64,000 bases of DNA from an uncultured bacterium. Lineage in GTDB: Bacteria; JAGRBM01; JAHCIT01. How positions within the stretch are numbered: the stretch's first letter is position 1; each line of letters opens with the position of its first letter. Positions 2,510-16,359 of this stretch are shown here, in pieces. The stretch lies in NCBI GenBank assembly GCA_964621525.1, contig CAZUMS010000003.1, positions 37,129-101,128 of the forward strand, in the 5' to 3' direction. The notes beneath the pieces are model-generated. The model was not told the origin of the DNA. It searched no databases and saw only the letters and a program-made list of their open reading frames with translations. Made by a program: the position numbers and the translations under genes.

Positions 2510-3094
2510 ATGTCCAGCCCGCTACTGACCGGCCCCGACGCCCCGTTCCAGTTCCACCCTGCCCAGGCGGAAGTCACCCTCGGCAACGAGGCTTTCCACG
2601 AGCGGCTTGCCTACGAGATCCGGCGGGCAAAACGCGAAATCTGCGACTTCGTCCACCCCGAAACCGCCAAGGGCCACGAAGAGCACGACATGGAACTGTT
2701 CCGGGCCTATTCGGAGGCCATGGACCGCAACGTCTCCGTCCGGTTCACCATGCCCGACCTCATGTGGAAGATGCTGATCGCCATGTACAGTCACGAGAAA
2801 TACGGCAGCGTCCGGTTTCTTGCCGGCGACGGACACATCCGTACCGTCCCGCAGGTGTGGTCCCCCTACACCGTATTCGACCGCGAGCGCGTGCTGCTCT
2901 GTATCCGCGAACCGCGCAAGCAGCTTCTCTTCAACCAGACCGTGCTGATCCACGACCCCGTGCTCGCGGAGAGGCTGGCCCAGGATTACGACCGCATGTG
3001 GAACGAGAAAGCGAAGGTGGTGGACCGGACCGAAGTGCTCGGCTCCAACTGGCGCAAGAAGCTCGCCGCCGTCCCTGCCGCCCCCGCCGCCTGA
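2510..3094 (+). CDS. hypothetical protein (194 aa, cytoplasmic)
   Basis: Strong SD gaaggaggg 7 nt upstream of ATG; no recognisable motif; first gene of an apparent operon with ispB-like and menA-like genes. Confidence 0.55.
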   Translation: MSSPLLTGPDAPFQFHPAQAEVTLGNEAFHERLAYEIRRAKREICDFVHPETAKGHEEHDMELFRAYSEAMDRNVSVRFTMPDLMWKMLIAMYSHEKYGSVRFLAGDGHIRTVPQVWSPYTVFDRERVLLCIREPRKQLLFNQTVLIHDPVLAERLAQDYDRMWNEKAKVVDRTEVLGSNWRKKLAAVPAAPAA

Positions 3095-5142: not shown

Positions 5143-5739
5143 ATGGCGGATGAAAAGCAGTCCGGCCCCGTACACGGTGCGGGGGACAAGTTGACCAAGG
5201 CGGCACAACCCAAACCGGCGCTTCGTGCGCCCAAGCTCATGGCCGACGCCATCGGCCAGCTCATGGAGTTCTGGAATTTCAAGAGCAACCTGGGCCGCAT
5301 CTGGACGCTCCTTTATCTCTCTCCGGACCCGGTCGCCGCCGCCGATATCGCCGACCACCTGAACCTCTCCTCTGGCGCCGTCAGCATGGCGACGAATGAG
5401 CTCCTCCGCTGGAAGGCGATCAAGAAGATCCACCAGCCAGGCGAGCGCAAGGACTTCTTCACGGCCGAAACCGACCTGTGGCGGCTCATTACGGGCGTCC
5501 TGTCGGACCGCGAGCGGCGCGAGATCGAATCGGCCCTGGAGGCCTTCAAGGAAGCGCTCTCGGCGCTCGATTCCGAGAAGGACCACTACGATCCGAAGGA
5601 CTTCAGGTTCAAGAAGGAACGGATCGAGCGGATGTTCCAGCTCGCGATGATGGGCAAGACAATGCTCGACACGCTCCTGAACCAGGCCCACCTCAACATG
5701 AAGCCGATCCGCGAGCATCTGGACAAGCTGAAGAGCTGA
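5143..5739 (+). CDS. GbsR/MarR-family HTH transcriptional regulator
   Basis: 198 aa; winged-helix region LGRIWTLLYLSPDPVAAADIADHLNLSSGAVSMATNELLRWKAI typical of GbsR-type regulators; start 4 nt after the menA-like stop. Confidence 0.6.
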   Translation: MADEKQSGPVHGAGDKLTKAAQPKPALRAPKLMADAIGQLMEFWNFKSNLGRIWTLLYLSPDPVAAADIADHLNLSSGAVSMATNELLRWKAIKKIHQPGERKDFFTAETDLWRLITGVLSDRERREIESALEAFKEALSALDSEKDHYDPKDFRFKKERIERMFQLAMMGKTMLDTLLNQAHLNMKPIREHLDKLKS

Positions 5740-5756
5740 AGCGGAATCCCAGCCCC

Positions 5757-5790
5757 TGAAAAGCCCTACGCCCGCGGCCTTTTCAGGCGG
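5757..5790 (+). terminator. weak hairpin plus T-run after the regulator gene
   Basis: gaaaagccctacgcccgcggccttttc: gaaaag/cttttc arms around the ccgcgg core; imperfect. Confidence 0.3.
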
Positions 5791-5811
5791 CGGACGTTCG
5801 GGTTAATAGGC

Positions 5812-6083
5812 GGAGGGCCGGAGCCCGATCAGGGATTGGGAAAAACCGGGTTCAGCATCGTTACTGGGAGTTGCCAGCCGTTCCGCTTGCGCGGTTCAGC
5901 GATCCCGTGGCAAACCCGGATGCCGGAACCCGATGGAGGAAACCCTCTGCCGGGCGCCGGCCTCTCCAAGGTTTTCTGCCCTGGCCGCCGGAGGGAAGAA
6001 GGCCTGCGCGGCTCGATGTCCAGGTTCCGTTGCGCATCGCAGGCCTCCTTTCATTCCCGTCCGGCTTCCCGGTACTTCCGCTC
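5812..6083. repeat. conserved ~270-nt noncoding element, copy A (immediately 3' of amt1)
   Basis: Shares long identical blocks with 8086..8349: cagggattgggaaaaaccgggt (22/22), gcgatcccgtg, gaggaaaccctctgccgggcgccggcct (28/28), ccaaggt, gtccggcttcc. Not consistently coding (see findings). Confidence 0.7.
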
Positions 6084-7583
6084 TCAGCCGCGGCTTCCGT
6101 GGAGCGTATCGCCCACGTAGCACTCGATGCCGAGTTCCTTGAGGTCGAGACCCTCGACTTCCTCTTCCTCGGACACGCGGACGCCCATCACGGCTTTCAC
6201 CGCATACCAGACCACCAGGCTCGCCGGGAACGCATAGGCTCCGACAGCGACGATGCCGATGATCTGATTGATGAGCTGGCCGGCGCCGCCTCCGTAGAAG
6301 AGGCCGAGGCCGGGCTGGGCTTCTCCGCCGGCAAAGGCCGGAGCGGCGAACAGGCCCACGCAGAGCGTGCCCCAGATCCCGTTGGCGAGGTGGACCGAGA
6401 GCGCGCCGACCGGGTCGTCGATCTTCAGCTTGTCCCAGAACAGCACGCTGTAGAAGCAGAGGATGCCGCCGACCGCGCCGATCACGAACGCGCCGCCTGC
6501 CGTTACCCAGGCGCACGGGGCGGTGATCGCCACGAGGCCCGCGAGGCAGCCGTTCAGCGACATGCCAAGGTCAGGCTTGCCGAACGTGATCCAGGCGATA
6601 GCCGTCGCGGTCGCCATGCCTGCCACTGCGGCGATATTCGTCGTCATGGCGATGTGGGCGATGGCGCCGCCGTCCCAGGTCATGGTCGAGCCGGGGTTGA
6701 ACCCGAACCAGCCGAGCCACAGGATCAGCGTGCCGAGCACGACGAGCGGAATTGAGTGGGCCGGAATCGCGTTGACCTTGCCGTCGGCCGAGTACTTGCC
6801 GATACGCGGCCCGATCACGAGGATGCCGGCGAGACCCGCCCAGCCGCCCACCGAGTGGACGACCGTGGAGCCCGCGAAGTCCCAGAATCCCTTGCCGGCG
6901 AGCCAGCCGGCACCCCAGATCCACTTGCCGGGGACCGGGTAAACCAGTGCTGTCAGCAGGAATGCGAAGACAACGAAGGAGAGATACTTGTTCCGCTCGT
7001 CCACGCAGCCGGAGACGATCGTCGCGGCCGTGCCGGCGAAGGCGAGCTGGAAGAAGAACTTGCCTTCCAGCGCCACGTTCGCCCAGCCGAGGGCGCCGGT
7101 GTAAAGTTCTTCAGGACCGATAAATGGCGTGAAAGAGCCCAGGAAGCCGCTTCCCTCGCCGAACATGAGCGAGAACCCGATCACCCAGTAGGCGAGCGTC
7201 GCCGCGCCGAACACGACGAAGTTCTTGCCGAGGATCGTGGCCGCGTTCTTCTTGCGGCAGAAACCGCTCTCCACAAGCGCGAAACCGGCGTTCATGAAGA
7301 ACACCAGGAAGCCGGCGATCATCGTCCAGACCGTATCGGCCGAAAACTTGATCGCATCGGTGCGGGCCTTCAGTTCTTCAAGCTGCTTGCTCAGCTCTTC
7401 CGTCGAAGGACCGGCCGGGGCTGCCGCGGCAGCCGGTGCCGCTTCGGCGGGCGGAGCGGCCTCAGCCGGTGCGGCCGCTGCTTCGGCCGGCGGCGGCGTG
7501 TCCTGCGCCGTGACGAGGGACGGACGCCAGAGCGCCGCCCCCAGCAGCATCAGTGCGAGAATTACTGTGGATTTCTTCAACAT
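6084..7583 (-). CDS. amt: ammonium transporter (Amt/MEP family), paralog 1
   Basis: 499 aa; signal peptide plus Ala/Pro-rich linker, then the Amt core (DTVWTMIAGFLVFFMNAGFALVESG ... 11 TM). Confidence 0.9.
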   Translation of the reverse strand: MLKKSTVILALMLLGAALWRPSLVTAQDTPPPAEAAAAPAEAAPPAEAAPAAAAAPAGPSTEELSKQLEELKARTDAIKFSADTVWTMIAGFLVFFMNAGFALVESGFCRKKNAATILGKNFVVFGAATLAYWVIGFSLMFGEGSGFLGSFTPFIGPEELYTGALGWANVALEGKFFFQLAFAGTAATIVSGCVDERNKYLSFVVFAFLLTALVYPVPGKWIWGAGWLAGKGFWDFAGSTVVHSVGGWAGLAGILVIGPRIGKYSADGKVNAIPAHSIPLVVLGTLILWLGWFGFNPGSTMTWDGGAIAHIAMTTNIAAVAGMATATAIAWITFGKPDLGMSLNGCLAGLVAITAPCAWVTAGGAFVIGAVGGILCFYSVLFWDKLKIDDPVGALSVHLANGIWGTLCVGLFAAPAFAGGEAQPGLGLFYGGGAGQLINQIIGIVAVGAYAFPASLVVWYAVKAVMGVRVSEEEEVEGLDLKELGIECYVGDTLHGSRG

Positions 7584-7800
7584 GGCTTTTCCTGCCTCTC
7601 CCGTTTTTCATCGTTCGGGAACGGAACCCTTGGAAGATCACCGGCGGACCTCCGGCCTTTACAACCTGTCCGTCTGCCGGATCCATTTCAGACCCGGCGG
7701 GGATCTCTTCGGGTTCCGGACCTCGTTTCAAATGGTTTTTGTCTCTCAGGCGAGACAGGCCGGGCCGGGTGGATCGGACGGCACGGCAGTCTTTCCCACC
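7584..7800 (-). promoter_or_regulatory. amt1 5' leader (~215 nt) with conserved 5' block
   Basis: Minus-strand block gggaaagac..gtgccg..gatccacccgg.ccgg..gtct.gcctgag (plus 7741-7800) is shared with the amt2 leader (plus 10196-10245); it lies immediately downstream of the predicted sigma54 promoter. Confidence 0.5.
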
Positions 7801-7809
7801 GGGGCGGAC

Positions 7810-7825
7810 TGCACTTGGCAGGCCA
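7810..7825 (-). promoter_or_regulatory. sigma54 (RpoN) -24/-12 promoter for amt1
   Basis: Minus strand TGGCCTGCCAAGTGCA: GG and GC in canonical positions (TGGCAC-N5-TTGCA spacing). Confidence 0.55.
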
Positions 7826-8085
7826 CGATGATCTGCAGCCGGACAAAAAGCGCCTGAAGGCAGGGTTGAATCCGCCGGAAGTTCAGGACGCGACAAACAA
7901 ACTCAAGCTACTGTAAGTATAAGCGAAATTAAGGAATCCTCCCCCGGCTGAAGGCACAGCTTTCGGGGTTCATTTTTTTGTCAAGGCTACAGGCTCCCGG
8001 CCCGGAACTAGTGTCTAAATATGTTGCAAGGATGCGGCTGAGAGCCGAGGCTTTGCCCGGAAATTGTGCATCCGGACGAAAATGG

Positions 8086-8349
8086 GGGCCGGTGCCCAGC
8101 CAGGGATTGGGAAAACCGGGTCCAGTACCGTTTTGCCGGAGCCCGTCAGCCGGATCATTTGCACGATCCGGCGATCCCGTGACGGTTCCGAGTACCGGAC
8201 CTCGGTCGAGGAAACCCTCTGCCGGGCGCCGGCCTGCCCAAGGTCGTTGCGAAGCGGCGGAACCCGAAGGAGAAGAGGCACCATTGGCTGCGCGGCGGTT
8301 GCGTTGCGGTTCATGTTGCCTCCCTCCTTCAGTGTCCGGCTTCCAGGCG
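8086..8349. repeat. conserved ~265-nt noncoding element, copy B (immediately 3' of amt2)
   Basis: See copy A. Contains SD gaaggagggagg plus ATG ~36 nt after the amt2 stop (track ORF 8015..8314). Confidence 0.7.
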
Positions 8350-10038
8350 TCAGCGGGCGTGCGGGGTCTCGGACGCCTTGTCCATCACGACACCCACATA
8401 CGCGGCGCAGCCCATTTCCGGGATATCAAGACCCTCAATCTCGGCTTCCACGGGTGTCCTGAGACCGACAGTCACATCGAGCAGCTTGAAGACCGCAAAA
8501 CCGATGGCGCCCACATAGACGAAGTTCGTGAGCACGCCGATCGACTGGGCGATGAACTGGCTCGCATCTCCGTAGAAGAGGCCCTTCACCGGACCGGCAA
8601 CGCCGTTCCAGCCATCGCCGTAGGAACCGTCGGCGAAAAGACCCAGGGCGAGGCAGCCCCAGGCGCCGTTCACGCCATGGACCGCCACCGCACCTACCGG
8701 GTCGTCGATCTTGAGGACGCGCTCGATGAAGAACACGGCCTCGACCACGATGATGCCGGAGACGAGCCCGATGATGCAGGAGGCCATGGAGTTCACGAAC
8801 GCACAGGGTGCCGTGATCGCCACAAGCCCGGCGAGCATACCGTTCGCCATCATGCTGGGATCCGGCTTACCCATCCGGAAAGCCCAGCAGTAGAGCGTGG
8901 CCGCGAGCGCGCCGGTCATGGATGCGAGCATCGTGTTCACGGCTACCACTGCCAGACGAAGATCCGTGCCAGCGAGTGTTGAACCGGGGTTAAACCCGAA
9001 CCAGCCGAAAGCGAGAATAAAGGTGCCGATGATTGCCATCGGAATGTTGTGGCCGGGGATCGGGTTCGGCGAGCCGTCCTTGTTGTATTTTCCGGCGCGG
9101 GGGCCAATCAGCCATCCGCCCACGAGCGCGAGCACGCCGCCCGTCATGTGCACGACCGAGGAGCCGGCGAAATCCACATGCCCGTGACCGAGGCCGTAAT
9201 ACTTGCCCAGCGTCGCCAGGAAGCCGCCGCCCCAGACCCAGCAGCCGTAGATCGGATAAATGATCGTGCCGACGGCGAGGCCATAGAGGAAGAACGACTT
9301 GTAGTTCCAGCGTTCGGCCATGGAACCGGTGGGAATCGTCGCCGTGGTGTCCATGAACACCATCTGGAAGAGGAACAGCGCGAAGATCGAGACATCGTAG
9401 ACGTCGGATCCGAGGAAGAAGCCCTTCGTACCGAACAGCACCCAGTCGTTACCGCCCACCTTGATCGAGAAGGCGGAGTTCAGCACATCCGTGCCGCCCA
9501 GCGTGCCCAGCGCCCCGAAGCCGCCGAACATGAAAGCGAAGCCGCACACGTAGAAACCGAGCATCCCGAGCGGATAGATCAGGAAGTTCATGGCCATTGT
9601 ATGCGACGCATTCTTGGCGCGGGTGAAGCCGGTCTCGACCATGGCGAATCCGGCCTGCATGAACATGACGAGGAAGCCGGCCAGCATGGTCCACACCATG
9701 TTGATCGAAACCTTGTTCTTGCCGACCTGGTTGGCGACGTCGCCCAGGGTCAACTTACCGGCTTCCGACTGAGGAACATCGGTCATGTTGCCCGTGGCGC
9801 CGCCACTGGGATCCGGCGCCCGCGGCGAGGCCGGCGCCTCGACCGTAATGCTCATCTCCACTGGCGCGGGCGGCGCTGCCGGCGGAGCGGGTGTGGCGGC
9901 GGCCTCTGCCGCCGGCGCAGAAGTCTCCGCCGGAGGTGGTACGGTTTCGTCGGCATTGGCCCAGTGGGGAACAATCAGTAGCGCGGCTGCGAACCAGACG
10001 ATCGCCGCAAAACTCATAATCTTTCTGGATTTACTCAT
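8350..10038 (-). CDS. amt: ammonium transporter (Amt/MEP family), paralog 2
   Basis: 562 aa; signal peptide MSKSRKIMSFAAIVWFAAALLIVPHWANA, Pro/Ala-rich linker, Amt core (NMVWTMLAGFLVMFMQAGFAMVETG). About 50% identity to paralog 1. Confidence 0.9.
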   Translation of the reverse strand: MSKSRKIMSFAAIVWFAAALLIVPHWANADETVPPPAETSAPAAEAAATPAPPAAPPAPVEMSITVEAPASPRAPDPSGGATGNMTDVPQSEAGKLTLGDVANQVGKNKVSINMVWTMLAGFLVMFMQAGFAMVETGFTRAKNASHTMAMNFLIYPLGMLGFYVCGFAFMFGGFGALGTLGGTDVLNSAFSIKVGGNDWVLFGTKGFFLGSDVYDVSIFALFLFQMVFMDTTATIPTGSMAERWNYKSFFLYGLAVGTIIYPIYGCWVWGGGFLATLGKYYGLGHGHVDFAGSSVVHMTGGVLALVGGWLIGPRAGKYNKDGSPNPIPGHNIPMAIIGTFILAFGWFGFNPGSTLAGTDLRLAVVAVNTMLASMTGALAATLYCWAFRMGKPDPSMMANGMLAGLVAITAPCAFVNSMASCIIGLVSGIIVVEAVFFIERVLKIDDPVGAVAVHGVNGAWGCLALGLFADGSYGDGWNGVAGPVKGLFYGDASQFIAQSIGVLTNFVYVGAIGFAVFKLLDVTVGLRTPVEAEIEGLDIPEMGCAAYVGVVMDKASETPHAR

Positions 10039-10248
10039 GATCGGTTTCCTGTCTCTCCATGAAATTCACTGCCGCCGTTTCACTTCATCCTGCGGGAGCC
10101 CGGCGCCGGAATCCGTCGTCGGCCCTTCTGGATGGAGCAGCCGACTCAAGCTCGTCGGCGGTTTCAGCAGTGCCGTTGTTGAGGCCTCAGGCAGACGGAC
10201 CGGTCCGGGTGGATCTGGCGGCACAGTCGTCTTTCCCGTCCGAGACGA

Positions 10249-10264
10249 AGCATCAGCTATGCCA
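10249..10264 (-). promoter_or_regulatory. sigma54 (RpoN) -24/-12 promoter for amt2
   Basis: Minus strand TGGCATAGCTGATGCT: TGGCAT-N5-ATGCT with GG/GC at canonical spacing; followed by a leader conserved with amt1. Confidence 0.55.
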
Positions 10265-10460
10265 TAAAAATGAACTAAAAATTTTAGTCTATTTCCGAGA
10301 TATATTCGGAAGAAATATCGGGAATAACGATGTCGAAATTTAATTCATAAGTATATGATATTATTTATATATTTTACCAATTACGGAGATAAATACAGCA
10401 CACCCGAAGGGACGTATTATCCTTCAAATAAATTGTACTAAAAATATGTGTTCATTCTTC
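10265..10460. promoter_or_regulatory. AT-rich island (~200 bp, roughly 25-30% GC) upstream of the amt2 sigma54 promoter
   Basis: Sequence aaaaatgaactaaaaattttagtctatttccgagatatattcgg...tatatgatattatttatatattttaccaatt in a ~67% GC genome; position fits an enhancer/IHF-bending region for a sigma54 promoter. Confidence 0.45.
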
Positions 10461-10967
10461 AAACACCGGTTGAGAACCGTGCGAGGATTTCCGTAATGCC
10501 TCAAAAATTGGCGATTCGAAGACCTGTCGCCCCATTTCTGGGCACATCTGTTCTTTCACCTCTGAATCCCGCTGCCGGAATGTCCAAAAACATGCTCTGT
10601 GGAAATCATTTTCTACCTTTTATTTCACATGGTTATAAAAGTCCTACGTATTCCGAAGCTCCCGGTGGAGTTCTTGGTTTCTGCCTTGCACATTGGGGAA
10701 ACGCTGAACCGGCCTGCCAGAGGATGGGGAACGTCCCGGTCGGGACCGGAAAGCCCGGTCCATACTGTTCTGTTAAGGACAGCTGGATCAGGAGAGCGGT
10801 CGGCAAGGTGGGACGGCGCCGGGTGAAAAACCGGCGCACCGGTGGATTCGGAACCCGTTAAACCCGGCACTCCAAAGAACAAGAAGCCGGTATCAGAGCC
10901 GTCCGGCGGGAGTGCGGAGGAAATCCGCCCCGCCCATGGCAACCCGGATTCCGGGTAGCTAGGTTAG

Positions 10968-11342
<375 letters not shown>

Positions 11343-11494
11343 TCCTGGAATAAAGAGTTCAAGATATCGGCAGGCGGCAGCAGGATCCCGTGCGGCAGCC
11401 GGCCGGAGGCGGGCAAGCGGCAACTGAAAAGGTGCAGGCTCCCGGTGGAAAACCAAAGCAGGGAAAAACAAACCCAAGGAGCACTGGTGTCATT

Positions 11495-12913
11495 ATGACG
11501 ACAGGCAAAGACGTTCTGAAAATGATCAAGGACCACGGCGTCGAGATGGTGGACCTCAAGTTCACCGACTTCCTCGGCTCGTGGCAGCACAAGAGTCACC
11601 CGATCAACATGATCGACGAGGATACGTTCACCGACGGCCTCGGTTTCGACGGCAGCTCGATCCGCGGCTGGGCCGACATCCAGGAATCGGACATGCTCTC
11701 GATCCCGGACCCCTCGACCGCCCGCATCGACCCGTTCATGCAGCATCCGACGCTGTCGCTCGTCTGCGACATCGTGGATCCCATCACCCGCCAGCCGTAT
11801 TCCCGCGACCCGCGCTATATCGCCAGGAAGGCCGAGGCCTACCTGAAGTCGACCGGTATCGGCGACACGGCCTATATCGGGCCGGAGCCGGAATTCTTCA
11901 TTTTTGACGACATCCGGTACGAGGTCGGCCAGCACAAGTCGTTCGTCTCGATCGACTCGGGCGAGGCCCACTGGAACTCGGGCCGCGACGAAGGCGGCAA
12001 CCAGGGCTACAAGATCCGCCCGAAGGAAGGCTACTTCCCGGTTTCCCCGTTCGACCAGCAGCAGGACATCCGCACGGAAATGTGCCTCGTCATGCAGAAG
12101 GTCGGCATCGCGGTCGAAACGCAGCACCACGAAGTCGCCACTGCCGGCCAGGCCGAGATCGACATGGTGTTCGACTCGCTGCTGAACATGGCCGACAAGG
12201 TGATGTGGTACAAGTACATCTGCCGCAACGTCGCCAAGCGCCACGGCAAGGTCGTGACGTTCATGCCGAAGCCCATGCCGGCCGACAACGGGTCGGGCAT
12301 GCACACCCACCAGTCGGTGTGGAAGGGCGGCAAGAACCTGTTCGCGGGCAGCGGCTACGGCGGACTGTCCGAGTTCGGCCTCTACTACATCGGCGGCATC
12401 CTGAAGCACGCCAAGGCTCTCAACGCCTTCACGAACCCGACGCTGAACAGCTACCGCCGTCTGGTTCCGGGCTTCGAGGCGCCGGTGTCCCTGGCCTACT
12501 CGTGCCGTAACCGCTCGGCCTCCTGCCGCATCCCGATGTACAGCAACAGCCCGAAGTCCAAGCGTGTGGAAGTCCGCTTCCCCGACGCGACCTGCAATCC
12601 GTACATCGCTTTCGCCGCCATGCTCATGGCCGGCCTCGACGGTGTTCAGAACAAGATCAACCCGGGCGATGCGCTGGACAAGAACCTGTACGATCTCTCG
12701 CCGGAAGAGCTCGCCAACGTGCCGCAGGCCTGCGGCTCGCTGGAAGAGGCGCTCGAGGCTCTGGAGAACGACCACAAGTTCCTCCTGAAGGGCGACGTCT
12801 TCACGAAGGACGTGATCGACACGCAGCTCGCCTGGAAGCGTCACCACGAAATCGACGTGGCCCGTTTCACGGTTCCGCCGATCGAGCACAAGCTCTACTT
12901 CGACGCCGGCTGA
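11495..12913 (+). CDS. glnA: glutamine synthetase type I
   Basis: 472 aa from [32 protein letters not shown]; SD aaggag 15 nt upstream; GS-I motifs ([25 protein letters not shown]). The track ORF begins 35 codons upstream at a GTG. Confidence 0.95.
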
Positions 12914-15093: not shown

Positions 15094-16359
15094 ATGCCGA
15101 AGAAAATCCTGGTCGCCGACGATTCCGTCACCATCCAGCGGGCCGTCCAGATCACCTTTTCAAACCAGCCGGATTTCACCGTCGAGTTCGCCAGGGACGG
15201 GGACGAGGCGCTCGCGAAGTTCAAGGCATCGAAACCCGATGCCGTCGTCGCCGACGTCGTGATGCCGAAGAAGAACGGTTACGACGTCGCCGAGGCGCTC
15301 AAGGGCCAGGGCGTGCCGGTGGTGCTGCTCAAGGTCAACTCCGAACCCTACAACGATGCCCGTGCGGCCGCCGCCGGAGTTGTCGAGGCGGTGCCGAAGC
15401 CCTTCGAAACGACGGCCCTCGTAGACGCCGTGAAGAACGCCATCGCCAAAGGCGCGGGCAAGGGCGCACCCGCCCCTGCCGCCGCGAAGCCCGCTGCTGC
15501 CCCGGCGGCGCCCAAACCGGTGGCTCCGGCACCTGCGGCGGCGAAGCCTGCGCCCGCCAAGGCGCCGGTTTCCCTCGAAGAAGAGACCGATTCGTGGGAT
15601 CTCGGCGAACCCGAAGCAGCCCCCGCCCCCGTGGCGGCCAAGGCTCCGGCTCCCGCGAAACCCGCCGCTCCTGTTCTCAAAGCTCCGCCTCCCTCGCCGC
15701 CCAAGCCGGCGCCAAAAGCGGTCGAGGAAGACTCGTGGGATCTTGGCGAACCGGAGGCTCCGGCAGCAGCCGCATCCCTCGAAGCCGAAGTCGAAGTCTC
15801 CGTCGAGACGGCGGCGGAGTCCCCCGCCTGGGATCTCGGCGAGACGGAAGCCGTTCCGGCTGAGACCGAAGCCGAAGTCGAGGTCGAACTGGCGGCCAGC
15901 GGCGGCGACATGTGGGATCTAGGCGAAACTGAAGCCGCCCCGGCCGTTCCCCCCGCGTCGATTGCGCCGTCCTTCGGACGCCAGGCTCCGGCGGCCGAGG
16001 TGGAAGTCGAACTGGCCTCGGACGGCGGCGATACCTGGGATCTCGGCGAGCCAGAAGCTGCTCCGCCCGCTCCCGCGACGCCACAGAAAATTCCGGTGAC
16101 TCCGCCCCCCGCGCCGCCGCCAGCTGCCCGTGCGGCTCCGGTTGCTCCGGCGGCAAAATCTGCCCCCGCCGCCCCCGCCACCGCCGTTCAGGTCAATGCC
16201 GCCCAGATCGAAGCGGCCGTGCGACAGGCGATCGAGCTGGCGCTCAAGCCCATGATCGACGAATCCGTGAAGCGGATCTCGAAGGCGATTACCGACGAGT
16301 TCCCGAAGATCGCCGAACGGCTGATCCAGAACGAGATCGACCGGCTCAAGGAAGGCTGA
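15094..16359 (+). CDS. response regulator with Pro/Ala-rich repeat linker and conserved C-terminal helix (RomR-like architecture)
   Basis: N-terminal receiver (ILVADDS...DAVVADVVMPKKNGYD...LLKVNSEP); ~250-aa A/P/E-rich linker with 5 copies of xWDLGE(P/T)EA(A/V)P; C-terminal AVRQAIELALKPMIDESVKRISKAITDEFPKIAERLIQNEIDRLKEG. Confidence 0.6.
   Translation: MPKKILVADDSVTIQRAVQITFSNQPDFTVEFARDGDEALAKFKASKPDAVVADVVMPKKNGYDVAEALKGQGVPVVLLKVNSEPYNDARAAAAGVVEAVPKPFETTALVDAVKNAIAKGAGKGAPAPAAAKPAAAPAAPKPVAPAPAAAKPAPAKAPVSLEEETDSWDLGEPEAAPAPVAAKAPAPAKPAAPVLKAPPPSPPKPAPKAVEEDSWDLGEPEAPAAAASLEAEVEVSVETAAESPAWDLGETEAVPAETEAEVEVELAASGGDMWDLGETEAAPAVPPASIAPSFGRQAPAAEVEVELASDGGDTWDLGEPEAAPPAPATPQKIPVTPPPAPPPAARAAPVAPAAKSAPAAPATAVQVNAAQIEAAVRQAIELALKPMIDESVKRISKAITDEFPKIAERLIQNEIDRLKEG
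15590..16060 (+). repeat. five dispersed ~33-nt direct repeats (tgggatctcggcgaaccngaagc) encoding the WDLGE motifs
   Basis: gattcgtgggatctcggcgaacccgaagcagcc / gactcgtgggatcttggcgaaccggaggctccg / gcctgggatctcggcgagacggaagccgttccg / atgtgggatctaggcgaaactgaagccgccccg / acctgggatctcggcgagccagaagctgctccg. Confidence 0.7.

Follow-up and report, generated by a model that had tools for sequence, protein, structure and literature searches.

In this study, we analysed the sequences that follow two tandem ammonium-transporter genes, amtA and amtB, on the minus strand of a 64,000-nt stretch of DNA from an uncultured bacterium (contig CAZUMS010000003.1 of assembly GCA_964621525.1, positions 37,129 to 101,128); the whole 64-kb stretch is referred to as the window. 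Downstream of each of these genes lie two conserved, covarying RNA structures of the amt sense strand that are under purifying selection, i.e. a long hairpin (D1) and a 172-nt rod-like RNA (the core). An earlier, sequence-only reading of the window had noticed a Shine-Dalgarno (SD)-like purine tract followed by an ATG after both amt stop codons and had taken it for a likely part of an RNA function. This tract is, with high probability, a structural arm of D1, and the open reading frames (ORFs) that start at the ATG are almost certainly non-coding. The core, together with a partner hairpin in the 5' untranslated region (UTR), is a previously undescribed and well-supported structured RNA specific to sigma-54-driven amt genes. 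Its most likely role, and the one that we favour, would be that of a regulatory RNA borne by the amt 3' UTR.

A rod-like RNA core downstream of both amt genes

Both amtA (6084..7583, minus strand, 499 aa) and amtB (8350..10038, minus strand, 562 aa) match PF00909 (E = 2e-117 and E = 5e-108, respectively), and their products are 44 % identical. About 280 nt located 3' of each stop codon align with each other at 77 % identity. This 3' element begins 2-19 nt after the amt stop and has the orientation of amt; for the element of amtA as a whole, the z-score is -4.5. The core was compared in eight distinct copies from five uncultured genomes, each of them immediately following an amt gene in the same orientation. 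The copies after amtA and amtB of the window are called winA and winB, L-numbers designate related loci, and the copies at L011 and L002 are L11A, L11B, L2up and L2dn.

The core was recognised by a covariance model (CM R1) at 5804..5975 in copy A (minus strand, 197.7 bits) and at 8075..8247 in copy B (minus strand, 174.4 bits, E = 4.7e-43), where it forms a long hairpin of 172 positions. Across the alignment of the eight sequences, 95.4 % of the cells fall in standard pairs, and 18 of the 49 pairs have changed on both sides, against 7.3 +/- 2.0 in shuffled alignments, none of which (0/500) reached 18. When the partners were slid by one to three columns as a control, pairing dropped to 26-50 %. 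Several conserved G-U pairs assign the structure to the amt sense strand. The distal helices covary, and the basal helices are invariant together with three unpaired pieces, namely UUUCCUC on the 5' side of a large pyrimidine-rich internal loop (UUUCCUC / UUUUCCCA), UUUCCCAAUCC on the 3' side of this loop and in the adjoining helix, and a 7-nt bulge, CGGGAUC (segment GGGAUCG).

Selection on the core is apparent from the comparison with silent sites: amtA and amtB are saturated there (43 % identity at four-fold degenerate sites), yet their cores are 71 % identical. Likewise, winA and L11A share 72 % of their four-fold degenerate sites and 95 % of their core. That the two downstream regions resemble each other only as a functionless leftover of a recent tandem duplication, or as a dispersed repeat, is thus hardly credible. 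The tandem arrangement and the alignable flanks would fit such an origin, but the paralogues are ancient, their cores differ by compensatory changes, orthologous cores are conserved across the five genomes, and the window holds no extra copies. Dispersal of the REP or MITE kind was not seen either, with just two copies in 64 kb, both after amt genes, and likewise two in the L002 genome, again both after amt genes.

The region 6001-7873 of L002 is a mosaic. Its downstream amt gene has a B-type coding sequence (83 % amino acid identity to winB, 45 % to winA) followed by an A-type core (82 % nucleotide identity to winA, 66 % to winB), so that the core behaves as a unit separate from the coding sequence. 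The arrangement points to UTR modules that stay in place while the coding sequence between them is replaced or undergoes gene conversion.

A search of the whole window against Rfam 15 (including glnA RNA and 6S RNA) gave no match at the gathering score, and at E <= 10 the region 5500-11100 returned four chance-level matches only, none of them inside the element. Membership in a 6S-like or riboswitch family was rejected on this ground. A candidate sigma-54 promoter inside the element, at TGGAGAGGCCGGCGC, was also discarded, its spacing not being conserved in L11B.

The SD-like tract as an arm of the D1 hairpin

After amtA, 46 nt separate the TGA from an ATG (6037..6035, minus strand), which is preceded by AGGAGG (6044..6049, minus strand) in the arrangement AGGAGG-N6-ATG and opens a 58-codon ORF (5861..6037) whose product begins MRNGTWTSSRAGLLPSGG. 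After amtB, 35 nt lie between the TGA and an ATG that starts at 8314 (8312..8314, minus strand). The arrangement here is GGGAGG-N4-ATG, the purine tract GAAGGAGGGAGG (8319..8330, minus strand) standing 4 nt upstream of the ATG, and the ORF comprises 99 codons (8015..8314; product beginning MNRNATAAQPMVPLLL). Both sites are as the sequence-only reading had described them, its "36-47 nt" being these 35 and 46 nt counted inclusively.

The motif GGAGG-N3-9-ATG occurs 11 times on the two strands of the window, compared with 18.6 occurrences expected from shuffles, and two of the 11 lie on the amt strand within 50 nt of the two amt stops. As copies A and B are homologous, this pair represents retention and not two independent events. 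The motif pair is kept in both copies of L011, in L019 and in L021, i.e. in 6/8 copies and four genomes including the window, and is absent from both L002 copies. Retention of the SD/ATG with varying frames among orthologues, put forward earlier as a check, was found in L011, L019 and L021 and fails in L002.

In the window, the tract and the ATG belong to D1 (8249..8348 after amtB, minus strand, minimum free energy (MFE) -47.1 kcal/mol, z = -3.4; 5978..6075 after amtA, minus strand, MFE -50.2 kcal/mol). D1 is a variable module between the amt stop and the core, and its fold is predicted in six of the eight copies (window A and B, L011 A and B, L019 and L021), with 25-36 bp (a near-continuous helix of about 22-36 bp), MFE values of -45 to -66 kcal/mol and z-scores of -2.3 to -4.2. 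The SD-like tract, which is the 5' arm of D1, is locked in a GC-rich stem against a CCUC-containing pyrimidine arm, which it meets at CCUUCU (5997..6002) in copy A and at CCUCUUCUCCUUC (8266..8278, minus strand), an anti-SD-like partner in the 3' arm, in copy B. The ATG tops the inner stem: in copy A it lies just above the 12-bp inner stem, and in copy B it is close to the top of D1, with partial pairing (CAU:AUG).

Covariation of the inner stem was assessed on these six copies, anchored on GAGGC, the partner bases being taken from the MFE fold of each copy. The GAGGC:GCCUC pairing is invariant (6/6), with A-U, G-C, G-C and C-G at offsets +1 to +4. The next five pairs (offsets +5 to +9) swap on both sides (CG/AU/UA, UA/UG/CG, GC/CG, CG/GC/AU and GC/UA/UG, respectively), so that covariation independently supports the stem in which the tract is buried. 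Of the roles proposed earlier for the purine tract, that of an anti-SD pairing partner within an RNA structure is the one borne out by these pairings.

The tract is predicted to be inaccessible. Its probability of being unpaired is 0.005-0.04 in copy A, 0.003-0.004 in copy B and 0.00-0.20 overall, versus 0.23-0.55 for the genuine amt ribosome-binding site (RBS), GGAGAGRCAGGAA. When the first 15-20 nt after the stop were held single-stranded, mimicking a terminating ribosome, the tract stayed paired (probability of being unpaired <= 0.16), so that the translational coupling that had also been suggested is not supported.

D1 is accessory to the core, since L002 retains the 172-nt core after both of its amt genes without the SD/ATG hairpin. 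In its downstream copy, D1 is missing and the core begins 38 nt after the stop. In its upstream copy (5150-5200), an unrelated 17-bp GC hairpin followed by UUUGUUUUG forms a canonical intrinsic terminator between the amt stop and the core. The earlier placement of the SD/ATG inside the conserved element thus needs amending: the pair does follow each amt gene, but in an accessory hairpin upstream of the universally conserved core, and the tract is no integral part of that element. D1 itself was rejected as an intrinsic terminator; no U-run accompanies it in the window, L011, L019 or L021, and the only U-run is that on the non-homologous hairpin of L2up.

Hairpins that sequester an SD sequence, such as the platforms of translational riboswitches and RNA thermometers, are located in 5' UTRs and gate a conserved downstream gene. 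D1 resembles them in that a GGAGG-type tract is paired with a CCUC-containing strand and the start codon sits atop the helix, the pairing of the SD with an internal pyrimidine arm being found in all six D1 copies. It differs in lying in a 3' UTR, in having no conserved coding sequence behind it and in having a stem far too stable for a thermometer.

Coding potential of the SD-led ORFs

The six SD-led ORFs comprise 58, 99, 69, 114, 70 and at least 123 codons. Relative to the TTTCCTC landmark, their frames at the core are 2, 1, 0, 2, 2 and 2, and no frame is open throughout all copies, each having stops in some copy. The copies winA and L11A are 95 % identical but stand in different frames because of a 1-nt indel, and their C-termini differ as well. 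The shared nucleotide blocks that the sequence-only reading had reported in differing frames (RGRRPAEGFL in A, QAGARQRVSS in B) are real. Minimum substitution counts at codon positions 1, 2 and 3 are 45, 48 and 47 (chi-square p = 0.95), i.e. without codon periodicity. The SD-led frame is no more open than the two alternatives, so that ORF length is an effect of composition and was rejected as a coding signal. Neither ORF of the window belongs to a Pfam family, and the 99-aa product matched only itself among 1.84 billion representative proteins. The SD-like tracts do not provide an accessible RBS either, by thermodynamic prediction only. The earlier statement that the element is not a conserved protein therefore holds.

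In the Logan assembly of SRR14271338, a gene has been called on the 99-aa ORF (L001 2736-3035, corresponding to window 8015-8314); this call is likely spurious and overlies a structured non-coding RNA. Together with an SD-like motif at suitable spacing from the ATG, and with the frame that five of seven SD-led ORFs share across the 5' half of the core, such a call is what speaks for small proteins of 58 and 99 aa co-expressed with Amt. By our own calculation, however, at least four of six copies share one frame by chance about 30 % of the time. The change of frame and C-terminus between near-identical orthologues, the compensatory base-pair changes found in place of 3-periodicity, and the lack of both a family and a homologue make such proteins extremely improbable, and the 58- and 99-codon ORFs should be left out of gene annotation.

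Promoters, 5'-UTR hairpin and transcript ends

A sigma-54-type promoter lies upstream of each amt gene. That of amtA, TGGCCTGCCAAGTGCA (7810..7825, minus strand; GG-N10-GC), was read from the sequence and is conserved in the alignment of relatives, as is that of amtB, TGGCATAGCTGATGCT (10249..10264, minus strand). Both have the form TGGC-N9-TGC, i.e. the GG-N10-GC pattern of the established sigma-54 consensus.

Approximately at the expected sigma-54 transcript start begins a 78-nt hairpin with an invariant 8-nt loop, GAUCCACC. It was located by a second covariance model (R2) at 7730..7807 for amtA (minus strand, 96.9 bits) and at 10170..10247 for amtB (minus strand, 75.3 bits), and in the relatives at L002 3330-3407 and 5748-5825, L011 2577-2654 and 5012-5089, L019 826-902 and L021 1078-1155. 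It is thus present at 8/8 core-carrying amt genes, and the model found it nowhere else in the approximately 230 kb searched. Two of its 16 pairs covary, and no Rfam match was obtained for it.

The amt RBS GGAGAGRCAGGAA is invariant across the copies and starts with GGAGAGRC. The same octamer, GGAGAGGC, opens the core of winA, and three of its six occurrences in the window are in the amt cassettes (7594-7601, 10051-10058 and 5960-5967, all on the minus strand). The 3' strand of the core, CCGGCCCUCC, could therefore also pair with the true RBS. Duplex and contiguous-helix scans between 5' and 3' UTRs revealed no complementarity that was statistically outstanding or covarying. Unrestricted RNAduplex runs returned meaningless whole-length duplexes, and the candidate pair GGGAAAGAC / GGUUUUUCCC (7-12 bp, several genes) was rejected as no better than many other helices of 7-12 bp and devoid of covariation.

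At its 3' end, the amtA transcript has a terminator-like GC-rich hairpin followed by CUUUUC (5759..5802, minus strand). An equivalent hairpin with a U-tract follows the core in L11A, L2dn and L019. These four copies stand at the final gene of the cluster, and their terminator hairpin, with its U-run, lies 15-30 nt beyond the core.

Distribution among genomes

Pattern scanning across 185,579 GTDB species, each represented by one genome, detected the element in a single contig of a metagenome-assembled genome, L002 (GCA_964565925.1). A pattern scan of metagenomes yielded 11 loci, only one of which, L011, was real according to the covariance model, the others being chance matches. The contigs of the closest AmtA homologues added L019 (with an identical copy, L020) and L021 (with an identical copy, L022). 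Neither the core nor the 5' hairpin was found with Amt homologues at 65-78 % identity (L003, L016-18 and L023-28); a 17.8-bit match in L027 proved to be a palindromic GC hairpin on the opposite strand and was dismissed. This narrow distribution, in five uncultured genomes, limits the impact of the finding.

The core sits at the position that glnK occupies in many bacteria. In L018, whose amt homologue is 77 % identical, a P-II (glnK) gene begins 48 nt after amt, where the core-carrying genomes have the RNA. Derivation of the element from a degenerate glnK was considered and rejected, the best tblastn match having E = 0.27 (3-kb database) and blastn giving only short noise.

Proposed function and alternative explanations

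The amt cassette would comprise, in order, a sigma-54-type promoter, the 5' hairpin with its GAUCCACC loop, the RBS GGAGAGRCAGGAA, the amt gene, D1, the A-rich linker, the 172-nt core and, for the last gene of the pair, the terminator hairpin. The whole 3' element would be transcribed together with amt, presumably under nitrogen limitation. D1 may serve as a boundary or processing hairpin, protecting the 3' end of the amt message and/or offering a double-strand RNase a site from which the core would be released. The invariant single-stranded pieces of the core (the UUUCCUC / UUUUCCCA loop and the CGGGAUC bulge) may then be where a partner binds, be it a protein or purine-rich sites of an mRNA. 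We consider that such a cassette, with D1 contributing the tract-bearing arm and the 3' UTR a regulatory RNA, has about an even chance of being the overall explanation. Release of the core as a trans-acting RNA is a more tentative part of it, possible and somewhat less probable than the whole. The anatomy, i.e. a long D1 helix and a short A-rich linker before the core (the linker in 8/8 copies), is suggestive only; it is by analogy to GlnZ and RsaC, discussed below, that we favour a 3'-UTR-borne regulatory RNA.

Several points weigh against this proposal. Transcription, processing and stability of the 3' element are putative. The covariation statistics are modest and partly phylogenetically dependent, as they rely on only eight sequences from five closely related genomes. 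Copies in the B position have no clear terminator, a hairpin with a U-run is not clear-cut in winB, L2up and L021, and the intrinsic terminator that separates the upstream amt gene of L002 from its core is accommodated less simply, since the core there would need read-through or independent transcription from a promoter of its own. A duplex target scan over 49 translation-initiation regions of the window produced no outlier, the amtA region reaching -19.6 for a mean of -15.1 (sd 5.3). Finally, although the local pairing context of the ATG varies among them, four diverged D1 lineages have all kept an ATG 4-9 nt downstream of the purine tract, which a purely structural role would not need.

This last point is the reason for keeping a masked initiation site as a rival, and some initiation-related role for the ATG is conceivable. 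The SD/ATG would then be a real, normally masked start that becomes available once a factor, temperature or processing opens D1. Ribosomes would translate an ORF of irrelevant sequence into the core, and it would be translation itself, not the peptide, that unfolds the core or keeps Rho or RNases off the 3' UTR. Retention of tract and ATG in 6/8 copies (four genomes) despite the divergence of D1 fits this scenario, as does the fact that every SD-led ORF (58 to 123 or more codons) reaches at least the middle of the core, and some genuine genes of the window do use GGAGG-type SDs (e.g. 2497-2512 before ORF 2510..3094). The scenario nevertheless appears unlikely to us, because the SD is buried and a ribosome at the amt stop does not free it, because non-SD frames are as open and ORF length is uninformative, because L002 has the core without any SD/ATG, and because in L019 the ATG nearest to the tract is only 1 nt away and opens a 3-codon ORF. 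Somewhat better placed, while still well short of our preferred reading, is a purely cis-acting 3' element that never works in trans and that, with the 5' hairpin, would determine stability, termination or translation of the amt message, for instance by blocking 3'-to-5' exonucleases or by binding a protein that controls the fate of the mRNA. The strict co-occurrence of 5' hairpin and core, the presence of a core after each of two very different paralogues instead of once per genome, and the lack of a convincing trans target among the 49 start regions are in its favour. Plain exonuclease blocks, on the other hand, need no invariant loop and bulge sequences over 170 nt, and the joining of an A-type core to a B-type coding sequence in L002 shows a core independent of the coding sequence.

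A third alternative would make the core a ligand- or protein-sensing, riboswitch-like domain of the 3' UTR that senses a nitrogen signal and replaces the link provided elsewhere by a co-transcribed glnK. Invariant internal-loop and bulge nucleotides in a covarying scaffold, the association with amt only and the P-II gene at the position of the RNA in L018 are compatible with it. The core is a single rod, however, and lacks the multi-helix junction or pseudoknot that ligand pockets typically have. No expression platform can be seen, and neither the glnA/glutamine riboswitch nor any other Rfam family is matched; we regard a sensor as improbable. A little less so, and still quite speculative, is the idea that 5' hairpin and 3' rod are two halves of one post-transcriptional device, by which translation or decay of the amt mRNA would be tuned by its own 3' end in replacement of the missing amtB-glnK coupling. 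The two could meet through a loop-bulge kiss of 5-6 bp (CGAUCC/GGAUCG), the 3' strand CCGGCCCUCC of the core matching the amt RBS GGAGAGGC, or could both bind one nitrogen-state regulator, and the true RBS could have decoys in the similar GGAG(A)GGC tracts of D1 and of the core base.

Relation to known systems

GlnZ is released from the glnA 3' UTR under NtrC control in E. coli and Salmonella (PMC9731577; bioRxiv 10.1101/2022.04.01.486790). Like the core, GlnZ does not code for protein and resides in the 3' UTR of a gene for nitrogen assimilation. It is made from an NtrC/sigma-54-controlled mRNA and has the 3' end of that mRNA, as the core may have that of the amt mRNA. The two have no similarity in sequence or structure, GlnZ being a short Hfq-type small RNA cut by RNase E, whereas the core is a 172-nt rod after a long hairpin, comes in two copies per genome, each paired with a 5'-UTR element, and has putative processing and targets. 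In Staphylococcus aureus, RsaC owes its release from the mntABC transporter transcript to RNase III, which acts close to a large 5' hairpin (PMC6765141). It likewise lies downstream of, and is co-transcribed with, a nutrient-transporter operon, and the hairpin spanning its 5' end is positioned as D1 is; cleavage of D1 by RNase III would be our own extrapolation. RsaC is not homologous to the core: it measures 544-1116 nt, comes from Firmicutes and pairs with the start codon of sodA.

The known structured RNA of amt genes is the glnA RNA, or glutamine riboswitch, a 5'-UTR motif of about 60 nt in cyanobacteria and marine bacteria (PMC2864571). Its association with ammonium-transporter and other nitrogen genes is shared by our element, while its size and 5'-UTR location are not, and no Rfam match for it was obtained in the window. 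If the core is a released regulator, the principle exemplified by GlnZ and RsaC, i.e. an mRNA for nutrient uptake or assimilation with a regulatory RNA in its 3' UTR, would extend to another lineage and another nutrient system. Should the core act jointly with the 5' hairpin, the two would cooperate across 5' and 3' UTR, for which bacteria offer few examples.

Genomic surroundings

The amt pair adjoins a divergent glnB-glnA pair (11004..11342 and 11390..12913). On its other side, a MarR-like gene (5143..5739) is convergent with amtA and faces the terminator-like end of its transcript. Between glnB and the amtB promoter, an AT-rich island (10200-10600) has a GC content of 0.37-0.45, compared with about 0.63 around it, and contains a palindrome, AAATGAACTAAAA/TTTTAGTCTATTT (10268-10294). 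The sigma-54 promoter may have its enhancer- or IHF-binding region in this island.

Upstream of glnB, a short conserved block (GCTAGGTTAGGCC-like) was spotted by eye in three genomes (window ~10950-10990, plus strand; L019 ~90-115; L021 ~315-335) and may be a glnB leader element. Further along the window, an ORF at 15094-16359 (plus strand) encodes a response-regulator receiver domain followed by a repetitive C-terminal region, with five repeats of about 36 nt (consensus ..TGGGATCTCGGCGAACC..) at a spacing of 84-141 nt.

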